IMG/VR virus record: IMGVR_UViG_2897341779_000003
Length of the DNA: 42,539 nt
Direction: 5' to 3' (one strand)
From: a virus
Taxonomy: Duplodnaviria; Heunggongvirae; Uroviricota; Caudoviricetes
Below the pieces are notes generated by a model. That model saw nothing but the letters and a program-made list of their open reading frames with translations. It did no database searches and was not told where the DNA came from. Of this stretch, positions 34,426-42,539 are shown one piece after another. Numbering within the stretch: the first letter of the stretch is position 1; every line of letters starts with the position of its first letter. The position numbers were made by a program, and so were the translations under genes.

Positions 34426-34905
34426 ATGATGCTCGCGTTAGGTATGTTTGTTTTTATGCGCCAGACGCTGCCACACCAGACCATGCAGCGTGAATCAGAT
34501 TATCGCTGGGCGTCAAATTCCCGTATCGGCAAACGGGATGCCTTTCAGTTTCTCGGTGTTGGCGAGGAAAATATCACGCTTGCCGGTGTGCTTTATCCCG
34601 AACTGACCGGCGGCAAGCTGACGATGACCACGCTCAGGCTGATGGCTGAGGAAGGCCGGGCGTGGCCGTTGCTGGATGGCACCGGCATGATTTACGGCAT
34701 GTATGTCATCAGCAGGGTGAGTGAAACAGGGAGTATTTTCTTTGCAGACGGCACACCCCGGAAAATTGATTTTACGCTGTCGCTCACCCGCGTTGATGAA
34801 TCACTGGCCGCGCTTTATGGCGATATCGGTAAACAGGCAGAATCGCTCATCGGTAAGGCTGGCAGTATGGCGACTAAATTCACGGATATGACGGGGGCGG
34901 GATAA
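34426..34905 (+). CDS. U: tail protein U (159 aa)
   Basis: 159 aa as in P2 gpU. Confidence 0.85.
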   Translation: MMLALGMFVFMRQTLPHQTMQRESDYRWASNSRIGKRDAFQFLGVGEENITLAGVLYPELTGGKLTMTTLRLMAEEGRAWPLLDGTGMIYGMYVISRVSETGSIFFADGTPRKIDFTLSLTRVDESLAALYGDIGKQAESLIGKAGSMATKFTDMTGAG

Positions 34906-36068
34906 TGCTGGATGCACTGACATTTGATGCAGGCAGTACGCTGACGCCGGATTACATGCTGATGCTCGACAACAGGGATATTACCGGCAATATCAGCGAC
35001 CGTCTGATGAGCATGACCCTGACGGATAACCGGGGCTTTGAGGCTGACCAGCTTGATATTGAACTGAACGATGCCGACGGGCAGGTCGGGCTGCCGGTTC
35101 GTGGCGCTGTCCTGACGGTGTATATCGGCTGGAAAGGTTTTGCCCTGGTATGCAAAGGGAAATTTACCGTTGATGAGGTTGAACACCGGGGCGCACCGGA
35201 TGTGGTCACCATCCGCGCCCGGAGTGCAGATTTTCGCGGGACGCTCAATTCCCGCCGTGAAGGCTCCTGGCATGACACCACGCTCGGTGCGATTGTTGAA
35301 GCGATAGCCTCCCGTAACAGGCTGGAAGCCAGTGTCGCTCCGTCACTGGCCGGAATTAAAATCCCGCACATCGACCAGTCGCAGGAGTCTGATGCAAAAT
35401 TCCTGACCCGCCTTGCTGAACGCAACGGCGGTGAGGTGTCGGTAAAAATGGGAAAACTGTTGTTTCTCAAGGCGGGGCAGGGGGTGACGGCCAGCGGTAA
35501 AAAAATCCCGCAGATTACCATCACCCGCAGCGACGGCGACCGCCATCATTTTGCGATTGCTGACCGTGGAGCCTATACCGGCGTAACGGCAAAGTGGTTA
35601 CACACCAAAGACCCGAAGCCACAAAAGCAGAAGGTAAAACTGAAACGCAAAAAGAAAGAGAAACACCTGCGCGCACTGGAGCACCCGAAAGCGAAACCAG
35701 TCACGCAGAAGAAAGCGCCAAAAGTACCGGAAGCGCGCGAAGGTGAATACATGGCAGGTGAGGCTGACAATGTTTTTGCCCTGACCGCGGTATATGCCAC
35801 GAAAGCGCAGGCCATGCGCGCCGCTCAGGCGAAGTGGGATAAGCTGCAACGGGGCGTTGCGGAGTTCTCCATCAGCCTGGCTACCGGTCGGGCAGATATT
35901 TACACGGAAACACCGGTTAAAGTGTCAGGCTTTAAGCGCGTCATAGACGAGCAGGACTGGACAATCACTAAGGTGACACATTTTCTGAATAATAGCGGCT
36001 TCACGACGTCCTTGGAGCTTGAGGTCAGGCTTTCTGATGTGGAGTACGAAACAGAAGATGATGAGTGA
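34905..36068 (+). CDS. D: tail protein D (387 aa)
   Basis: 387 aa as in P2 gpD. Confidence 0.85.
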   Translation: MLDALTFDAGSTLTPDYMLMLDNRDITGNISDRLMSMTLTDNRGFEADQLDIELNDADGQVGLPVRGAVLTVYIGWKGFALVCKGKFTVDEVEHRGAPDVVTIRARSADFRGTLNSRREGSWHDTTLGAIVEAIASRNRLEASVAPSLAGIKIPHIDQSQESDAKFLTRLAERNGGEVSVKMGKLLFLKAGQGVTASGKKIPQITITRSDGDRHHFAIADRGAYTGVTAKWLHTKDPKPQKQKVKLKRKKKEKHLRALEHPKAKPVTQKKAPKVPEAREGEYMAGEADNVFALTAVYATKAQAMRAAQAKWDKLQRGVAEFSISLATGRADIYTETPVKVSGFKRVIDEQDWTITKVTHFLNNSGFTTSLELEVRLSDVEYETEDDE

Positions 36069-36149
36069 TGTTTTTATTTTATCTATTTGTTTTATAAGGA
36101 TAAATTAACTAAAATAGCACCATCAACAAAACCGGAAGAGGTGCTCGCG

Positions 36150-36368
36150 ATGTTTCATTGTCCTTTATGCCAGCATGCCGCACATGCGCGTACAAGCCGC
36201 TATATCACTGACACGACAAAAGAGCGTTATCACCAGTGTCAGAACGTGAATTGCAGCGCCACATTCATCACTTATGAGTCGGTACAGCGATACATCGTGA
36301 AGCCGGGAGAAGTCCACGCCGTAAGACCGCACCCGTTGCCGTCAGGGCAGCAAATTATGTGGATGTAA
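36150..36368 (+). CDS. ogr: late transcription activator Ogr (72 aa, C4 zinc finger)
   Basis: 72 aa from the internal ATG; CPLCQ ... CQNVNC zinc finger; last phage gene before attR. Confidence 0.85.
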   Translation: MFHCPLCQHAAHARTSRYITDTTKERYHQCQNVNCSATFITYESVQRYIVKPGEVHAVRPHPLPSGQQIMWM

Positions 36369-36469: not shown

Positions 36470-36496
36470 AAAAAATAAGCCTGCGTAAGGGAGATT
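36470..36496. other. prophage attR core (27 bp; 2 substitutions relative to the attL copy)
   Basis: AAAAAATAAGCCTGCGTAAGGGAGATT; forms the terminator of the adjacent sRNA gene. Confidence 0.7.
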
Positions 36497-36556
36497 ACAC
36501 AGGCTAAGGAGGTGGTTCCTGGTACAGCTAGCATTTTATGGGTTATGTTTTTCAGC
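36470..36556 (-). ncRNA. cyaR: CyaR (RyeE)-like Hfq-dependent sRNA, about 87 nt; its terminator overlaps the att core
   Basis: Minus-strand sequence GCTGAAAAACATAACCCATAAAATGCTAGCTGTACCAGGAACCACCTCCTTAGCCTGTGTAATCTCCCTTACGCAGGCTTATTTTTT agrees with my recollection of E. coli CyaR apart from 2 positions in the terminator stem. Confidence 0.7.
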
Positions 36557-36640
36557 GAAACGGATGATAACCTTAATAAATGCAGCTGTATGTGATCGGT
36601 TTCTAAGAATTTTCCATCCGGGAAAAATAATCGAAATTAA

Positions 36641-38002
36641 TCACTTACCGTGGGGGTTACGCGTGGTTTCCCCGGAGAAATTACGCATCAGCAGCGCGTA
36701 ATTTAGCTCAAGATCCTGCGGCACCGGGAGCCACACAGTATAACCATCGCCTGGTGCGACCGGCATCGCTTCACCTTTGGCGTTTTCCATATGCTCAAGG
36801 GTAAAGTTAATGTTGCCTTGCGGCGTCATCAGCTCAAGGCTGTCGCCAACGGAGAATTTATTTTTCACCGCTACCGCCGCGAGCTCCCCCTTGCGCTCAC
36901 CGGTAAACTCACCAACAAACTGCTGGCGGTCAGAAACCGAATAACCGTATTCGTAGTTCTGATAATCGTCGTGGGTATGACGACGCAGGAAACCTTCGGT
37001 ATAGCCACGATGCGCCAGACCTTCCAGCGTTTCCAGCAGGCTGGTATCGAACGGTTTGCCCGCAGCGGCGTCATCGATAGCTTTACGGTAAACCTGCGCG
37101 GTGCGTGCGCAATAGTAGAAAGATTTGGTACGGCCTTCGATTTTCAGCGAATGCACGCCCATTTTGGTCAGGCGTTCAACATGGGCGATGGCGCGCAGAT
37201 CTTTCGAGTTCATGATGTAAGTGCCGTGCTCATCTTCAAACGCGGTCATATACTCGCCCGGACGCTGGGCTTCTTCGATCATAAACACTTTGTCGGTTGG
37301 CGCGCCGATACCCAGCGTCGGCTCAACATTTTGCACCGGAATCGGCTCGTACTTGTGTACGATGTTGCCGACGTCATCTTCTTTCCCTTCCTGGACATTG
37401 TACTCCCAGCGGCAGGCGTTGGTGCAGGTGCCCTGGTTCGGGTCGCGCTTGTTGATATAGCCAGAGAGCAGGCAGCGACCGGAGTAGGCCATGCACAGCG
37501 CGCCGTGAACGAAGATTTCGATCTCCATATCCGGCACCTGATTGCGGATCTCTTCAATCTCTTCCAGTGACAGTTCGCGAGAGAGGATCACGCGGGTCAG
37601 ACCCATTTGCTGCCAGAATTTCACCGTCGCCCAGTTTACGGCGTTAGCCTGTACCGAGAGGTGGATTGGCATTTCCGGGAAGTGTTCACGCACCAGCATA
37701 ATCAGCCCTGGATCGGACATAATCAGCGCATCCGGCCCCATTTCCACCACCGGTTTCAGGTCACGGATAAAGGTTTTCAGCTTGGCGTTGTGCGGTGCAA
37801 TGTTGACCACGACATAAAACTTTTTCCCCAGCGCGTGGGCTTCATTGATGCCGAGCTGAAGATTTTCGTGGTTGAATTCGTTGTTGCGTACACGCAGGGA
37901 GTAACGCGGCTGGCCCGCATAAACAGCATCTGCGCCATAAGCGAAAGCGTAACGCATATTTTTCAGCGTTCCCGCCGGGGAAAGGAGTTCCGGTTTAAAC
38001 AT
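36641..38002 (-). CDS. yegQ: U32-family peptidase/hydroxylase, YegQ-like (453 aa)
   Basis: 453-aa ORF with RBS GAGAG; host-like GC content; U32 family and yegQ identity recalled from the N-terminus MFKPELLSPAGTLKNMRYAF and its position next to CyaR. Confidence 0.75.
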   Translation of the reverse strand: MFKPELLSPAGTLKNMRYAFAYGADAVYAGQPRYSLRVRNNEFNHENLQLGINEAHALGKKFYVVVNIAPHNAKLKTFIRDLKPVVEMGPDALIMSDPGLIMLVREHFPEMPIHLSVQANAVNWATVKFWQQMGLTRVILSRELSLEEIEEIRNQVPDMEIEIFVHGALCMAYSGRCLLSGYINKRDPNQGTCTNACRWEYNVQEGKEDDVGNIVHKYEPIPVQNVEPTLGIGAPTDKVFMIEEAQRPGEYMTAFEDEHGTYIMNSKDLRAIAHVERLTKMGVHSLKIEGRTKSFYYCARTAQVYRKAIDDAAAGKPFDTSLLETLEGLAHRGYTEGFLRRHTHDDYQNYEYGYSVSDRQQFVGEFTGERKGELAAVAVKNKFSVGDSLELMTPQGNINFTLEHMENAKGEAMPVAPGDGYTVWLPVPQDLELNYALLMRNFSGETTRNPHGK

Positions 38003-38489
38003 AATTCTCTCGTTCTGATGACAGGTCAGAGCCGCTTCACCTGATGAAGCGGTTAGGGGAGTGCCCCCACTTTAAGGGCGGGCATTGTAGCGCAATCGGC
38101 GGGTTTAGCTCCAGTGTAAATGTGAGGGGAGAAGTGGCAGAGATGGGAGTATCTACACGAAATCTTCATGTAGTGATAAAAGAAAAAGTTGACGATACTG
38201 ACTACTTTCCTGAATGTTCATCCCCTGATAATTATGAATGTATTTGCCGTCCTCTTACAGCCTGAATTATTGAGGATGTAAAATAATGTCATTTATCTCA
38301 ATTATTCACTAAAATAAACTGCAAATATAAGACATAATTTCCAAAGTTTGTGACGCTGCCACTATTGAGTTTACGTTATTTTCTTGAGTGGCTTACTTGA
38401 GTATGTACCTGCAACCATGCTGATTTAGATAAAAAATCTATAGTCAACAATTATTGCTTTGAGTGATATAATAAACACGGGCGGATGTT

Positions 38490-39704
38490 ATGACTGGAAA
38501 TATTCACCAGAATTATAATGCAAGGGATGTAATTAATGCCCCGGAAGTAAAAACAGCAATTTTGCAAAGAAGTCTGTTTCGCCAGGATAATGAGACCATC
38601 CAAAAATGGTTACTCAACCATTTTTATCGATGGCTAATTAGTGACTTTCCAATGGTGCAACAAATTAACTCGCTTGCAGAATATTCACTGTTTAATAAAA
38701 ATGATGATGTAATCCCGGAATGGCTGGTATCGAAGTTTAATACTGCCTCAGTATCAACTGCGACACTTTATTATATCGAAACCGATCATCAACAAATATT
38801 AACCAAAGAACGGGAGTTGGTGGAATTTCTTTCCAGGAAATGTGGTACCCGTCTGGAATCAAAACTACAGCGCATAACCTGCTACGTTGCGTTCAGAATG
38901 CGTGAAGAAGAGCATGAAAAGATGCTTCAACGACGCGAGAAAGGGTGGCAGCCGAGTGAACAAAATACTGTAAAGTCAATACTTGATGTGCCAGACGGAA
39001 AAATTGTTGAGTTTGATGCCAGTCATTCGAACCTTCGTCGTGAAATGGCTTATGAATCATGGCATATGCAACATTGCGTAGGCCAGTTTGATGATCGAAA
39101 AAATCTTACCGGTGGTTATGGTGAGTATTATGCAAATCAAATTGAGCAACATAAATTACGGTTATTCAGTTTGCGTGATAATAATAATATTCCTCATGTT
39201 ACTATTGCTCTCAATGTTGTTGGTGATTCACTTGAAATTGATCAAATAAAAGGTAAGCAAAATCGTCATCCAGTTAAAAAATATGCGGACGATGTTTTGT
39301 CTCTTTTGCAACTATTATCACCACAAGCAGTTCGACATAGTGATTGTGAAGGTATGGGTATTGTTTATGAAAATACACCTGAATATCAGGGGTGGAAATA
39401 TGTAACGGAAGTATACGAAACCAGTTTTTTACTAAGCGTACTACATAATAACTTTCATTTATTAGAACATTTTACAAATCCTTCAGTGGAGTTGCAGTGG
39501 TTACTGTTACACAGCGCACCTGATAAGTTACATTATCTTAATGCTATTGACCCTATAGTTGCTACTTCTGCGGAAATGTTATTCCCTGGCGCTGAGTGGC
39601 ATCCGCAATTTGCAGGTCAAAATATCAGCAACATTTCCTTTGAGATAGAGAGTTTGACATTACAGACATCTCATTACTTACCCCTGTCAGAGGTTGAAAA
39701 ATAA
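38490..39704 (+). CDS. hypothetical protein (404 aa), first gene of an AT-rich three-gene operon
   Basis: Long ORF with candidate sigma70 promoter (-35 TCAACA 38444-38449, -10 TATAAT 38467-38472); stop overlaps the next start (TAATG). Confidence 0.6.
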   Translation: MTGNIHQNYNARDVINAPEVKTAILQRSLFRQDNETIQKWLLNHFYRWLISDFPMVQQINSLAEYSLFNKNDDVIPEWLVSKFNTASVSTATLYYIETDHQQILTKERELVEFLSRKCGTRLESKLQRITCYVAFRMREEEHEKMLQRREKGWQPSEQNTVKSILDVPDGKIVEFDASHSNLRREMAYESWHMQHCVGQFDDRKNLTGGYGEYYANQIEQHKLRLFSLRDNNNIPHVTIALNVVGDSLEIDQIKGKQNRHPVKKYADDVLSLLQLLSPQAVRHSDCEGMGIVYENTPEYQGWKYVTEVYETSFLLSVLHNNFHLLEHFTNPSVELQWLLLHSAPDKLHYLNAIDPIVATSAEMLFPGAEWHPQFAGQNISNISFEIESLTLQTSHYLPLSEVEK

Positions 39705-40420
39705 TGAGTCTTATCATTGTTCTCCTGGTCGCAATATTTATTTTTATCTATAGATACAAAAAAAACAAACCACAAATCGATGCTTTTATTGCTAAAGAAA
39801 AAGAAAAGGATCTAATCAAGGACAAAAGACGAGCAACAAAGAGACGTAAGTGGGCATTAGCAATTGGTGATATAGTTGCTCGTCGTAATGGACTGTCAGT
39901 AAATGGCTTCACGTTAGATTTAAAGTTGACTGATGATAAGCGTCAACAACTTGCACTACAGGTTAAACAAGAGCTAGGAACAGAAACTTACCAAAGCAAC
40001 GAAGATTTCCGTCAACAAATTGGCGTTATATTACAGCGCTGGGCTACAGGGCTTGGTAATTCTCCACATGATTTTTACGAACAACTGGCAGCACAAGGCC
40101 AGGTTCTGGATGGGCTGGCGTTTGACTGTATGCGCACTGCTTTTTTAACTCGTTGCATCGCCGGTTTAGGCTGGTGCGATGAAAACCAGGCCTGGATAGT
40201 GTTATTACTGAATGCTCAAAGAGCACAAGATTGTTTCGCTTCATGGGAAGATTATGCCAGTGCTTATGTTCGCGCCCGACAAAAATGGTTAATGATATAC
40301 GATACCCCCGTCGCCACTGCGAACCGTGATTTAAAGGAAGTCACTGCATGGTTGAAAGATCCATCCAGTAACTGGAAAAAATTGCCGTGGAATGAATTTA
40401 AAATTTTTGAACCTAATTAA
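39704..40420 (+). CDS. hypothetical membrane-anchored protein (238 aa)
   Basis: N-terminal transmembrane helix (LIIVLLVAIFIFIY) followed by a basic linker; translationally coupled to the upstream gene; family (possibly DUF1266-like) is uncertain. Confidence 0.6.
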   Translation: MSLIIVLLVAIFIFIYRYKKNKPQIDAFIAKEKEKDLIKDKRRATKRRKWALAIGDIVARRNGLSVNGFTLDLKLTDDKRQQLALQVKQELGTETYQSNEDFRQQIGVILQRWATGLGNSPHDFYEQLAAQGQVLDGLAFDCMRTAFLTRCIAGLGWCDENQAWIVLLLNAQRAQDCFASWEDYASAYVRARQKWLMIYDTPVATANRDLKEVTAWLKDPSSNWKKLPWNEFKIFEPN

Positions 40421-40430
40421 AAGGATATCT

Positions 40431-42539
40431 ATGGAACAGGATGCTCGTTTACTCAGTGCAATGCAAAAGATGTGTGACCAAAAAATGCCACTTAATACTC
40501 TTGAGAGAAAATGGCAAATCGCAAATATTCCTTATATGTTACAAGAAAAACGTTATCAGGAACTAGATGAAATTTATAACCAGGTATTACAGGAGAGTTT
40601 CACTTCTCGTCAGGCTGAAAAGCGCTATTTTTTATCCTGGACCCAAATGTGCAACTATTTTTATGATATGAACACGCTAGTTGATGCCGGAACAGAAGGT
40701 TTAAGACTCATTAAAACCTGGCAGCAAGCAAGACCTCATTCTACACATGCCTGGCTTGCCGAAGCACAATACTGGAATCACCGTGCATGGTTATATCGCA
40801 GTTATGGCTGGGCAAATGATACCACACATGCAATGTGGCTTTGTGCTGGTGCATGTAATGAACAAATGGTCATCGCTACACTTAAAGCAATTGATTGTGA
40901 CCCACGACAATGGATGGCTGCATTACTTACCAGCACCAACTCAAAAGTATTTGGTCAGCCAGCCTGGCTGGCGGCACACCTTAACGGTGATAGTGTCGCA
41001 GGAATACCATTAATGATCGCACTGAAAAATTATCACCGCCGCTCCCCGCAAGAAGTGGAAGCGTTGATGGCGTATTCCGGACTTTCGTTTGAGCATGCAA
41101 TATGCCCCGTTTTGCCTCGCCCCAATATACTTCCTGAGTATGATGATGATGGTGGGCAAAAATATTGGCTTTCTGTTTGCCTGACTATTTTTCCTCACAC
41201 TTTTTATCCTTTTGTTGAATATATACCATTTCGAATGCCACGCTGGGGAGGGTCGCATAAAGAAATTTCCGAATTGCTGGATTCAGTAACCTGTAAGCAC
41301 TTATCTACCGAAGAACATGACTATATGGATCTCTTACTTTGGTGGGATGATTACCGAGATGTCAGCATTGAGGACATTGCGCCCGAGGAGCAACAATATG
41401 CAATCGACTTAGCAGAGAATATTGCTCAGTACGCACAATTTCAGGAATGTCGCCATAATGCCCTAGAGTGGTTACTTGCCTGCTATAACAAGCAGAACGA
41501 TCACGATAAGTTGTGGTGCTGTATACAGCGAGCGGTGATGGAAGACATGAAGCTCAATAATTATTACACTGCGTACGCGATAAAATTTGCATTAAGTTAT
41601 TATCCAGATTCATTCTGGATATATAATTTTATCTGCCAAAATTCACAGAATACAACTTATGCTACACCTGTTATTTATAGGGGGTTTTTCCAGCGAGAGG
41701 GTATTTTGGGTTTTGAAAAAGATGAAGGGCAGGGCGATGCTTGGCTGGAAAAAGCTAGTGACATTAAATACAATCATAATTGGCGGTCGGCAATAAAAGA
41801 TTTGAGTTGGTTTGACCTTTCTGATTATTTCATTCCGCTTGCGACAATTGGTAAGCAAAGAAATATTCCTGCCGCATTAAATTTAGTTGCTCTTGAATAT
41901 TTGGATAAGGAAGACAATACAAAATTACCTTATGAACCATCTACAGCTTTGGAGTATTTTCGACGGGCACTTAAAATACTTCAAGATGACCTAAATTTCC
42001 ATAGCTCGGTATCTTATCCACTGGTAAAAAATTATGGTTATAGCGAACATCAACAAGATCTACAAAATATTTATTTTAGCATTGCTATCTGCTACCAGGC
42101 ACTAAATAAACAAGAAATTTCTAAAGAAACACGGGCTATTTATGAAAAAAATCTCCTTGACAATTTATTTCTGGCTCATGAAGCTGGACATGAAAAAGCA
42201 TGGGGGCTTTTTTTACTTAATATCTTTGAGGTGAAAGAACTCTCACTTGCTCATTTGCACCTCCAACAGGTACAAGAAGAAGCGAATAAAGGTACGCTCG
42301 AAGCAATGATTACTTTGTCGCGCCTGTATGGTAACAAAGAAGATGAAAAACTGTTTAACATGAAACTCAGTGCGCGCTGGACACATTTTGCCGAGTCTTT
42401 ATATCCAGATAACGAAATTATTGCAGATTGCCTTTATCATCTCCATTTCTCCAGCCTGTGGAAACGCTGTCGTTATGCCTGGTATACCTTTCGTATTCCA
42501 GCTAGCGAATTACCCGGCCAGGTTAACAGTATGGTGTAA
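40431..42539 (+). CDS. hypothetical protein (about 702 aa), Trp-rich N-terminal region and a TPR/Sel1-like C-terminal region
   Basis: ATG 40431 preceded by AAGGA; the ORF-track start 40392 is in the same frame and overlaps the previous gene; TAA stop at the window end. Confidence 0.6.
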   Translation: MEQDARLLSAMQKMCDQKMPLNTLERKWQIANIPYMLQEKRYQELDEIYNQVLQESFTSRQAEKRYFLSWTQMCNYFYDMNTLVDAGTEGLRLIKTWQQARPHSTHAWLAEAQYWNHRAWLYRSYGWANDTTHAMWLCAGACNEQMVIATLKAIDCDPRQWMAALLTSTNSKVFGQPAWLAAHLNGDSVAGIPLMIALKNYHRRSPQEVEALMAYSGLSFEHAICPVLPRPNILPEYDDDGGQKYWLSVCLTIFPHTFYPFVEYIPFRMPRWGGSHKEISELLDSVTCKHLSTEEHDYMDLLLWWDDYRDVSIEDIAPEEQQYAIDLAENIAQYAQFQECRHNALEWLLACYNKQNDHDKLWCCIQRAVMEDMKLNNYYTAYAIKFALSYYPDSFWIYNFICQNSQNTTYATPVIYRGFFQREGILGFEKDEGQGDAWLEKASDIKYNHNWRSAIKDLSWFDLSDYFIPLATIGKQRNIPAALNLVALEYLDKEDNTKLPYEPSTALEYFRRALKILQDDLNFHSSVSYPLVKNYGYSEHQQDLQNIYFSIAICYQALNKQEISKETRAIYEKNLLDNLFLAHEAGHEKAWGLFLLNIFEVKELSLAHLHLQQVQEEANKGTLEAMITLSRLYGNKEDEKLFNMKLSARWTHFAESLYPDNEIIADCLYHLHFSSLWKRCRYAWYTFRIPASELPGQVNSMV

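Follow-up and report, generated by a model that had tools for sequence, protein, structure and literature searches.

The nearest described analogues of the genes considered here are two triads that lie beside hscC in Escherichia coli K-12, ybeQ (Sel1)-ybeR (DUF1266)-djlB and ybeT (Sel1)-ybeU (DUF1266)-djlC, in each of which a Sel1-repeat gene and a DUF1266 gene are joined by a coupled third gene encoding a J-domain protein that works with Hsp70. Closer relatives are found in STM2133-STM2134-STM2135 of Salmonella (STY2346-STY2348 in S. Typhi) and in the corresponding genes of Klebsiella and Citrobacter, among which only the Salmonella orthologues have published phenotypes. PcfJ-like proteins (PF14284) are also found on conjugative plasmids and within giant mobile-element proteins. 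In the literature we found no function for any PcfJ protein and no functional study on DUF4034, DUF1266, the PcfJ domain or the copies of these genes in strain UTI89 (the DUF1266 gene of the H-NS2 paper appears, by its locus tag, to be a different locus). Here we describe three co-oriented genes, g1, g2 and g3, which close a 42,539-nucleotide stretch of DNA, hereafter the window, filed as the IMG/VR virus record IMGVR_UViG_2897341779_000003, and which lie beside the host gene yegQ. We show that the trio is a self-contained conserved unit, widespread in Beta- and Gammaproteobacteria, and we tentatively propose that it would act as a membrane-tethered enzyme-scaffold complex affecting the cell surface, a reading that we hold to be plausible, if rather short of probable, and the mechanism of which is inferred.

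A preliminary description of this region, made from its letters alone, depicted an AT-rich operon of three co-oriented genes encoding proteins of 404, 238 and 702 residues, and all of this was reproduced, including the 1-nucleotide overlap at the g1/g2 junction (GAAAAATAATGAGT), a TAATG in which the A is shared. It also placed the start of g3 either within g2 or 10 nucleotides past its stop codon. The latter is to be preferred, since the ATG at 40431 follows an AAGGA located about 7 nucleotides upstream, is the start given in RefSeq and yields a protein as long as the enterobacterial g3 homologues (702-705 residues); the alternative ATG at 40392, which would give 715 residues, falls inside g2 and is unlikely. 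The stop codon of g3 is the final codon of the window.

The conservation of the trio was followed in a neighbourhood scan with one genome per species, which returned 191 species with a relative of g1 and from which the counts given below were taken for the best 80 loci. The g2 gene lies directly downstream of g1, or is fused to it, in 79 of these 80 loci, and a large repeat protein is encoded next to them in 78, either as a DUF4034-type protein downstream (36 loci) or as a TPR-type protein upstream (42 loci); the loci without a partner are contigs of 2.6-2.9 kb. The two types of partner are mutually exclusive, and g3 showed no similarity to the alternative TPR-type partner in hhalign, so the two are not detectably homologous. 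When the neighbouring reading frames of all 80 loci were clustered, no other family was common to more than a few genera. Homologues of g1 itself are numerous (224 close ones in a word-indexed search and 2,127 cluster representatives in an exhaustive profile search), and the arrangement around them varies: the same three genes overlap in Burkholderia, g1 and g2 are fused and followed by a DUF4034 gene in Lysobacter and Rhizobium, and a TPR-type protein of about 780-800 residues is encoded immediately upstream of g1-g2 in Pseudomonas and Niveibacterium. Natural fusions include several proteins that join g1 to DUF1266, one that joins g1, DUF1266 and TPR within 774 residues (P0221) and one that joins g1 directly to TPR (P0232). 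Linkage and fusions together show a strict three-way unit, by which PcfJ, DUF1266 and DUF4034, all of them functionally blank families, come to be tied to one another in at least 191 proteobacterial species, the carriers including Salmonella, Klebsiella, the Burkholderia cepacia complex and Pseudomonas.

As a separate observation, the genus Burkholderia holds DUF4034-type partners in some loci and TPR-type partners in others (L073, L079, L084 and L092 versus L024-L043), and the two versions of the module may thus coexist there as paralogous systems.

With respect to the individual subunits, g1 matches the Pfam family PcfJ (PF14284) over residues 141-268 with 26.2 bits at a cut-off of 25, which is marginal for the protein taken alone, and all 44 aligned g1 homologues match the same family (best E 5.4e-8). 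Across these 44 sequences of the g1 subfamily, which have a conserved N-terminal helical region of their own (residues 9-150), 50 residues are invariant. The signature of the family, MxHCVG...SLRD...PHxT...QxKGKxN..P..KY, lies in the central alpha/beta core (about residues 160-305). M193, H195, C196, G198, Y214, S227, R229, D230, P235, H236 and T238, as well as Q252, K254, G255, K256, N258 and Y265, are all present in g1 and at least 88% conserved in 94 distant PcfJ domains; the V after C196, the L between S227 and R229, and P261 are further conserved positions of the signature. Neither a signal peptide nor a membrane helix was found in g1. In its AlphaFold2 model (confidence score pLDDT 87), helical N- and C-terminal regions surround the core, whose elements (residues 161-304) run strand-strand-helix-helix-strand-strand-strand-helix-(helix)-strand-strand, and the order b-a-a-b-b-b-(loop)-a-b contained therein agrees with that of GNAT enzymes. 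A Foldseek search with this model returned GNAT enzymes as nearly all of its top 50 matches, with probabilities of up to 0.96 and scores that were not significant. At the GNAT pyrophosphate site, as placed from the order of secondary structures only, g1 has the loop Q252-I-K-G255-K-Q257, in which an invariant Gln replaces the final G/A, so that the sequence between strand 4 and helix 3 reads QxxGxQ and not the GNAT motif Q/R-x-x-G-x-G/A. No acetyltransferase profile was listed for the 44 g1 homologues at E <= 10, a setting at which the HMMER filters drop most matches above about 0.1, and sequence and profile searches of the PDB with g1, g2 and g3 gave nothing significant. Judged by strand order, strands 2, 3 and 4 would end, together with the loop that follows, at one edge of the sheet, which is the place where GNAT enzymes bind the pyrophosphate of acyl-CoA. 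Our conclusion is that g1 probably acts as an enzyme or binds a ligand, in either case at a site containing Cys and His, and that its weak but consistent resemblance to GNAT enzymes in predicted structure may serve as a lead rather than as evidence of family membership. Through the linkage, the fusions and these candidate active-site residues, what had been "three hypothetical proteins" becomes a complex that can be tested, with named residues to mutate.

The deep profile search also brought up P0246, a protein of 3,332 residues that combines three PcfJ domains with a eukaryotic-type topoisomerase I catalytic core; this is typical of the multidomain proteins of phages and conjugative elements and indicates that the PcfJ domain lives in mobile elements outside the module as well.

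The g2 protein matches DUF1266 (PF06889) with 68.7 bits at a cut-off of 27 and aligns with E. coli YbeU in hhalign (probability 88.8%, E 2.5e-6); its conserved residues include LLNAQRAQD..SWED. Its residues 1-19 are the most hydrophobic 19-residue stretch in the three proteins (Kyte-Doolittle mean 2.09) and are followed by RYKKNK, the N-terminal helix is retained in homologues, and the AlphaFold2 model (pLDDT 86), which has no meaningful neighbour in the PDB, shows a long helix at residues 2-53 followed by a helical bundle. The N-terminal membrane anchor of the preliminary description is thus borne out, and with it the membrane association that it suspected.

In g3, the match to DUF4034 (PF13226) is strong and complete (339.7 bits, cut-off 21.3, profile positions 2-274 of 274) and covers residues 43-319 of the 715-residue reading, that is, about 30-306 of the 702-residue protein. 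The N-terminal half was rightly called Trp-rich, with 14 Trp among the first 320 residues and 10 among the other 382. The probable Sel1-like nature of the C-terminal half is read from homologues: g3 itself has no Sel1 (PF08238) match at E <= 1 and no Pfam match at all in this half, while the homologue P0143 scores 42 bits with Sel1 (cut-off 30.7) at residues 411-446, a position equivalent to the C-terminal half of g3, the Lysobacter and Chania homologues score under the cut-off, and the PDB profile search with g3 listed SEL1L at E 0.12. The protein is 27% identical to its Burkholderia counterpart over the full length, has no signal peptide and no membrane helix, and shows no similarity in hhalign to DUF1266. 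The earlier comparison with clusters that combine Sel1 repeats with DUF1266 therefore proved apt, given the DUF1266 domain of g2, the Sel1-like half of g3 and the analogous ybe triads. All three proteins match named Pfam families, none of which is characterised in function, so that in function the novelty remains.

Phenotypes are available for the Salmonella orthologues. STY2346 (STM2133) and STY2347 (STM2134) are the orthologues of g1 and g2, respectively, and STM2135 (t0737), described in a study of an S. Typhi islet as a conserved gene for a protein of about 700 residues next to yegQ (PMC7400221), is that of g3. In a transposon screen of S. Typhi in human macrophages, STY2346 was depleted with a log2 value of -4.47 and STY2347 with one of -2.40; a strain deleted for STY2346 was taken up less well, whether assayed in competition (index 0.57) or individually, the phenotype was reproduced in that the complemented strain won over the mutant in competitive uptake (index 0.67), and sensitivity to peroxide was slightly, but not significantly, higher (PMC3344905). 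The published deletion primers map inside g1 of a Salmonella locus, where they remove L011 8076-8723, which confirms STY2346 as the g1 orthologue. In S. Typhimurium, the STM2133 deletion was among the hypermotile mutants, with 1.55x swarming (PMC4219756). These phenotypes are modest and consistent with an effect on surface or envelope properties, and the uptake phenotype in macrophages suggests a relevance to host interaction. The Salmonella g1 (L011 7656-8885) is widely annotated as a "cytoplasmic protein" of 294 residues; its frame extends without a stop to an upstream Met, from which a protein of about 400 residues with the conserved N-terminal region would be read, so that the short form looks like a mis-annotated start site and not like a truncation or a pseudogene.

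The model that we favour could accommodate these observations as follows. The products of g1, g2 and g3 would assemble into a single complex at the inner membrane, on its cytoplasmic face, in which g2 would provide the anchor, the solenoid of g3 would act as a scaffold or recruit a partner or substrate, and g1 would be the active subunit. The core of g1 would represent a very divergent GNAT-type fold with a conserved Cys/His pocket and a basic Q-x-K-G-K-x-N loop at the place of the acyl-CoA pyrophosphate, and it is from this core, pocket and loop that we arrive at our best guess, namely that g1 may modify a protein or a precursor of the envelope with an acyl group or one like it. The output would be altered properties of the cell envelope or surface, and not phage defence. 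The topology on which this model depends agrees with the natural fusions, whose linker between g1 and DUF1266 either lacks hydrophobic stretches or, where the picture is clearest, contains two of them side by side that can be read as a hairpin; both arrangements leave the g1 and DUF1266 portions together in the cytoplasm.

Several points weigh against this proposal. Protein-protein interaction, activity and substrate are all inferred for the trio, and it is only from the order of the strands that the conserved g1 residues are deduced to cluster in a pocket. Many fused homologues lack the membrane anchor, so that tethering is not universal. The Salmonella phenotypes, besides being modest, come from orthologues that are 60-65% identical and could be indirect. 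Finally, the E. coli copy, AT-rich as it is, may be silenced or play a different role. A bolder form of the proposal, in which the PcfJ domain would be a highly divergent Cys/His acyltransferase-like enzyme and the trio a new and widespread membrane-tethered modification complex that tunes the cell surface and the interaction with host cells, must be called unlikely. If it were true, it would give a first way into the function of DUF1266, DUF4034 and PcfJ, and of the DUF1266/Sel1 pairs beside hscC as well.

How the trio came to be where it is in E. coli can be read from the surrounding sequence. In K-12, the interval between yegP and yegQ measures only 146 bp; the window diverges from K-12 after 38093, and homology returns about 35 bp before the yegP stop codon. 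The segment 38003-42539 of the window is 100% identical to UTI89, S88, IHE3034, NU14 and LF82 (extraintestinal or adherent-invasive E. coli), and in UTI89 the genes follow one another as yegQ (-), g1, g2, g3 and a gene for a 201-residue protein (all +), yegP (-) and baeR (-). Among 5,426 complete E. coli genomes, 297 (about 5%) carry this 5.1-kb cassette (GC 0.399), and the remainder match only the first 91 or 121 bases of the query; the copy is thus limited to a minority of strains that includes UTI89, S88, IHE3034 and LF82. We take the matching strains UTI89, S88 and LF82 to belong to phylogroup B2, and the E. coli copy presumably to be of B2 type. In the complete genomes listed among the 297 full-length carriers, the frames of g1, g2 and g3 are intact and 99.8-100% identical. 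Genomes of the 121-base class, which match up to window position 38123, hold a parDE pair at the site, with the match lying under the RelE/ParE gene (EC93 is such a strain, L095 2603-3197). At its left edge (38094-38123) the cassette variant retains about 30 bp from the 3' end of parE, and at its right edge about 70 bp of the region upstream of parD; these short remnants indicate that the cassette sits exactly where the parDE coding sequences lie elsewhere. The yegP-yegQ site of E. coli therefore occurs in three states, empty, with a parDE pair or with the four-gene cassette, and illustrates neatly how cassettes replace one another at a small hotspot of the chromosome. Within the window, the cassette is marked neither by direct or inverted repeats at its flank nor by an integrase or an insertion sequence.

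The islet accordingly begins at 38094/38124 and not, as previously drawn, at 38490, and the operon of three genes is extended in E. coli by a fourth co-oriented one (UTI89, L001 13598-14203), 58 nucleotides past the end of g3 and of the window. Its product of 201 residues starts with MLMLKKGMMLVGLIFFSLPANA/GC and carries a signal peptide (...SLPANA/GC...); the gene has a GC content of 0.45, higher than that of the trio, matches no family, has no homologue beside the module in any other genome examined and is unrelated to the gene after g3 in Salmonella. We treat it as a separate passenger of the cassette. The initial idea that the islet had taken the place of a conserved host gene upstream of yegQ does not hold, as yegP is retained just beyond the islet, outside the window.

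The composition of the trio sets it apart from its flank: GC content and GC content at third codon positions (GC3) are 0.378 and 0.301 in g1, 0.407 and 0.339 in g2, and 0.405 and 0.354 in g3, as against 0.543 and 0.645 in yegQ, and the stretch from the left junction to g1 (38094-38489) has a GC content of 0.356. In Klebsiella, Salmonella, Citrobacter and Buttiauxella, a trio lies between baeR and yegQ in the direction of baeR. In the first three genera the genes, their order, their coupling and the baeR-yegQ interval are the same as in E. coli, whereas the orientation relative to the flanks is inverted, and there is neither a yegP, which is missing in Buttiauxella as well, nor a fourth gene; the enterobacterial contig L096 shares the arrangement of E. 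coli, in which the trio and yegQ are transcribed divergently. GC content is host-like in Salmonella, moderately low in Klebsiella and 0.39 in the E. coli trio. The E. coli proteins are only 60-65% identical to the other enterobacterial ones, compared with 93-97% for BaeR and YegQ, while g3 of Klebsiella and Salmonella are 78% identical to each other. The patchy spread, the low GC3 and this gap in identity show the E. coli copy to be a foreign version that came by horizontal transfer from a low-GC donor, and the flanking genes place its landing site in the very interval where related genera keep a resident copy. The horizontal acquisition surmised earlier is hence upheld, both by these figures and by the alternation with parDE or an empty site. 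Conservation of position, which would have spoken for a resident operon, is lacking across E. coli and is nevertheless seen between genera, in the orthologous trio of the same baeR-yegQ interval.

Such a history could also be that of a new anti-phage defence or abortive-infection system, with the repeat protein as the sensor of a phage product and the PcfJ protein as the effector at the membrane. Multi-gene layouts of a sensor plus an effector with TPR-type proteins are common in defence systems, and it would suit this explanation that the E. coli cassette is patchy (297 of 5,426), AT-rich and housed in a variable site that holds parDE elsewhere, that a P2-like prophage lies about 1.7 kb away across yegQ, and that PcfJ domains are found in giant multidomain proteins typical of mobile elements. 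However, g1 and g2 matched nothing in PADLOC-DB 2.0 (systems after 2023 are not covered), where the best match of g3 was the candidate family PDC-S32 (16.8 bits, E 0.0013), and scans of all cassette proteins with PHROGs and NCBIfam gave nothing significant. No nuclease, NTPase, TIR, sirtuin or pore-forming effector could be recognised in the module. The g1 subfamily has no member in 50,697 phage genomes and occurs in 8 of 72,556 plasmid records, all of them non-mobilizable replicons of at least 300 kb, so that no phage or transmissible plasmid in these sets carries the module. Outside E. coli, its neighbours are unrelated, with no conserved or mobility genes among them, and GC content is host-like except in Klebsiella (about 5-12 points lower); in Salmonella, g3 has been described as a conserved gene at this locus (PMC7400221). 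Phage defence is not favoured here, and we consider it improbable; the toxin or defence module envisaged in the preliminary description finds no counterpart in these searches.

By analogy with the K-12 ybe cluster, the trio might instead be a non-catalytic adaptor or proteostasis module, in which clients would be bound by DUF1266 paired with the Sel1/TPR protein, and the part of g1 would be structural or regulatory. The combination of Sel1, DUF1266 and a translationally coupled third gene does occur twice beside hscC, g2 is homologous to YbeU, and the resemblance of g1 to GNAT enzymes is weak. On the other hand, a gene for a J-domain protein or Hsp70 is conserved beside the module in none of the 80 loci and is missing from the cassette, g1 is unrelated to DjlC (no similarity in hhalign), and the PcfJ core holds strictly conserved polar residues (His, Cys, Arg, Asp, Thr, Gln, Lys, Asn and Tyr) that resemble an active or ligand-binding site more than a passive interface. 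A module of this kind seems improbable to us.

It is less probable still that the E. coli cassette is merely carried along in a silenced state and at present does nothing for this strain. Its very low GC content (0.39), its AT-rich leader and the fact that we found no published expression data or phenotype for the E. coli copy would all be compatible with silencing. Yet the three frames are intact and 99.8-100% identical in the complete genomes listed, the coupling signals and ribosome-binding sites are preserved, and every invariant family residue that was scored is present in the E. coli sequence.

We regard as very improbable an element of interbacterial competition, that is, an immunity or toxin-immunity set tied to type VI secretion or contact-dependent inhibition. 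The g3 orthologue of S. Typhi is directly adjoined by a putative islet of orphan type VI immunity genes (PMC7400221), in Niveibacterium a TsiV-family gene (L014 2872-4440) lies just upstream of the module, and the E. coli cassette ends with the unrelated gene for a secreted 201-residue protein, as expected of an orphan periplasmic immunity protein, which this fourth gene could indeed encode. Such neighbours are, however, not conserved across the 80 loci, and their presence in two unrelated genomes may be a coincidence; the module proteins reside in the cytoplasm and are not associated with any toxin domain, Rhs, PAAR or VgrG protein, and the fourth gene is without a homologue in other module loci. 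The trio does not look like a type II toxin-antitoxin pair, as no toxin or antitoxin family was matched in Pfam or NCBIfam, the proteins measure 238-702 residues and parDE is absent save for the roughly 30 bp of parE.

The remaining features of the region are collected in the table below. The promoter-like site of the leader (TCAACA-17-TATAAT with a TG in front) agrees with the consensus at 10 of 12 positions and is a consensus match only; promoter-like sites are no more numerous in the region than expected from shuffled sequence. The sequence TTTATCTCAATTATTCAC at 38292-38309 has 4 mismatches to the BaeR-box consensus and was the sole result of a search of the E. coli, Klebsiella and Salmonella module leaders, with no counterpart in the latter two; it is probably a chance occurrence in AT-rich DNA, and the search lends no support to Bae control of the cassette. 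A scan with Rfam found no RNA family in the leader, and its only match was CyaR (RyeE), a small RNA gene that is intact (100 bits) and lies beyond yegQ, between it and the end of the prophage. The P2-like prophage (Peduovirus) shares about 97% identity, over 90% of its stretch, with Escherichia phage 899, which comes from a uropathogenic strain. It is inserted beside cyaR on the downstream side of yegQ, a site at which K-12 retains just the ogrK/yegZ remnant.

Table. Features of the window discussed in the text, with positions counted from its first letter.
Feature	Position	Strand	Description
P2-like prophage	12000-36400		Peduovirus
gpD	34905-36068		in the prophage stretch
ogr	36087-36368		in the prophage stretch
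cyaR (ryeE)	36473-36558	-	small RNA
yegQ (trhP)	36641-38002	-	conserved host gene, left flank, divergent from the cassette
Left junction of variable segment	38094-38123	.	about 30 bp, 3' end of parE, common to parDE strains and absent from K-12
5' leader of cassette	38124-38489	+	AT-rich
Promoter-like site	38444-38472		within the leader
g1	38490-39704	+	404 residues, cytoplasmic PcfJ-domain protein, candidate catalytic subunit
g2	39704-40420	+	238 residues, N-terminal membrane helix and cytoplasmic all-helical DUF1266 domain
g3	40431-42539	+	702 residues, helical-repeat protein with N-terminal DUF4034 and Sel1-like C-terminal half, candidate scaffold

Compared with the systems known so far, the module differs from GNAT acyl-CoA N-acyltransferases in that the scores of g1 are not significant, no profile matches, the loop is non-canonical and the conserved His-Cys pair is atypical of GNAT enzymes. 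On the features examined, the module cannot be assigned to a catalogued defence system, to a toxin-antitoxin pair or to the GNAT family. With the PcfJ-like proteins of conjugative plasmids and giant mobile-element proteins, g1 shares the domain and the very same signature residues, whereas its own subfamily is chromosomal and always linked to DUF1266 and a repeat protein. The comparison is closest with the ybe cluster, the DUF1266 domain of which is homologous to that of g2. There, the third partner is the J-domain protein and the DUF1266 gene precedes it; in the islet, the partner is a PcfJ protein with no chaperone nearby, the DUF1266 gene follows it, and the repeat protein has the additional DUF4034. 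Taken together, the module looks, by analogy, like a variant of a recurring theme in which DUF1266 and a Sel1/TPR protein are combined with a third partner.

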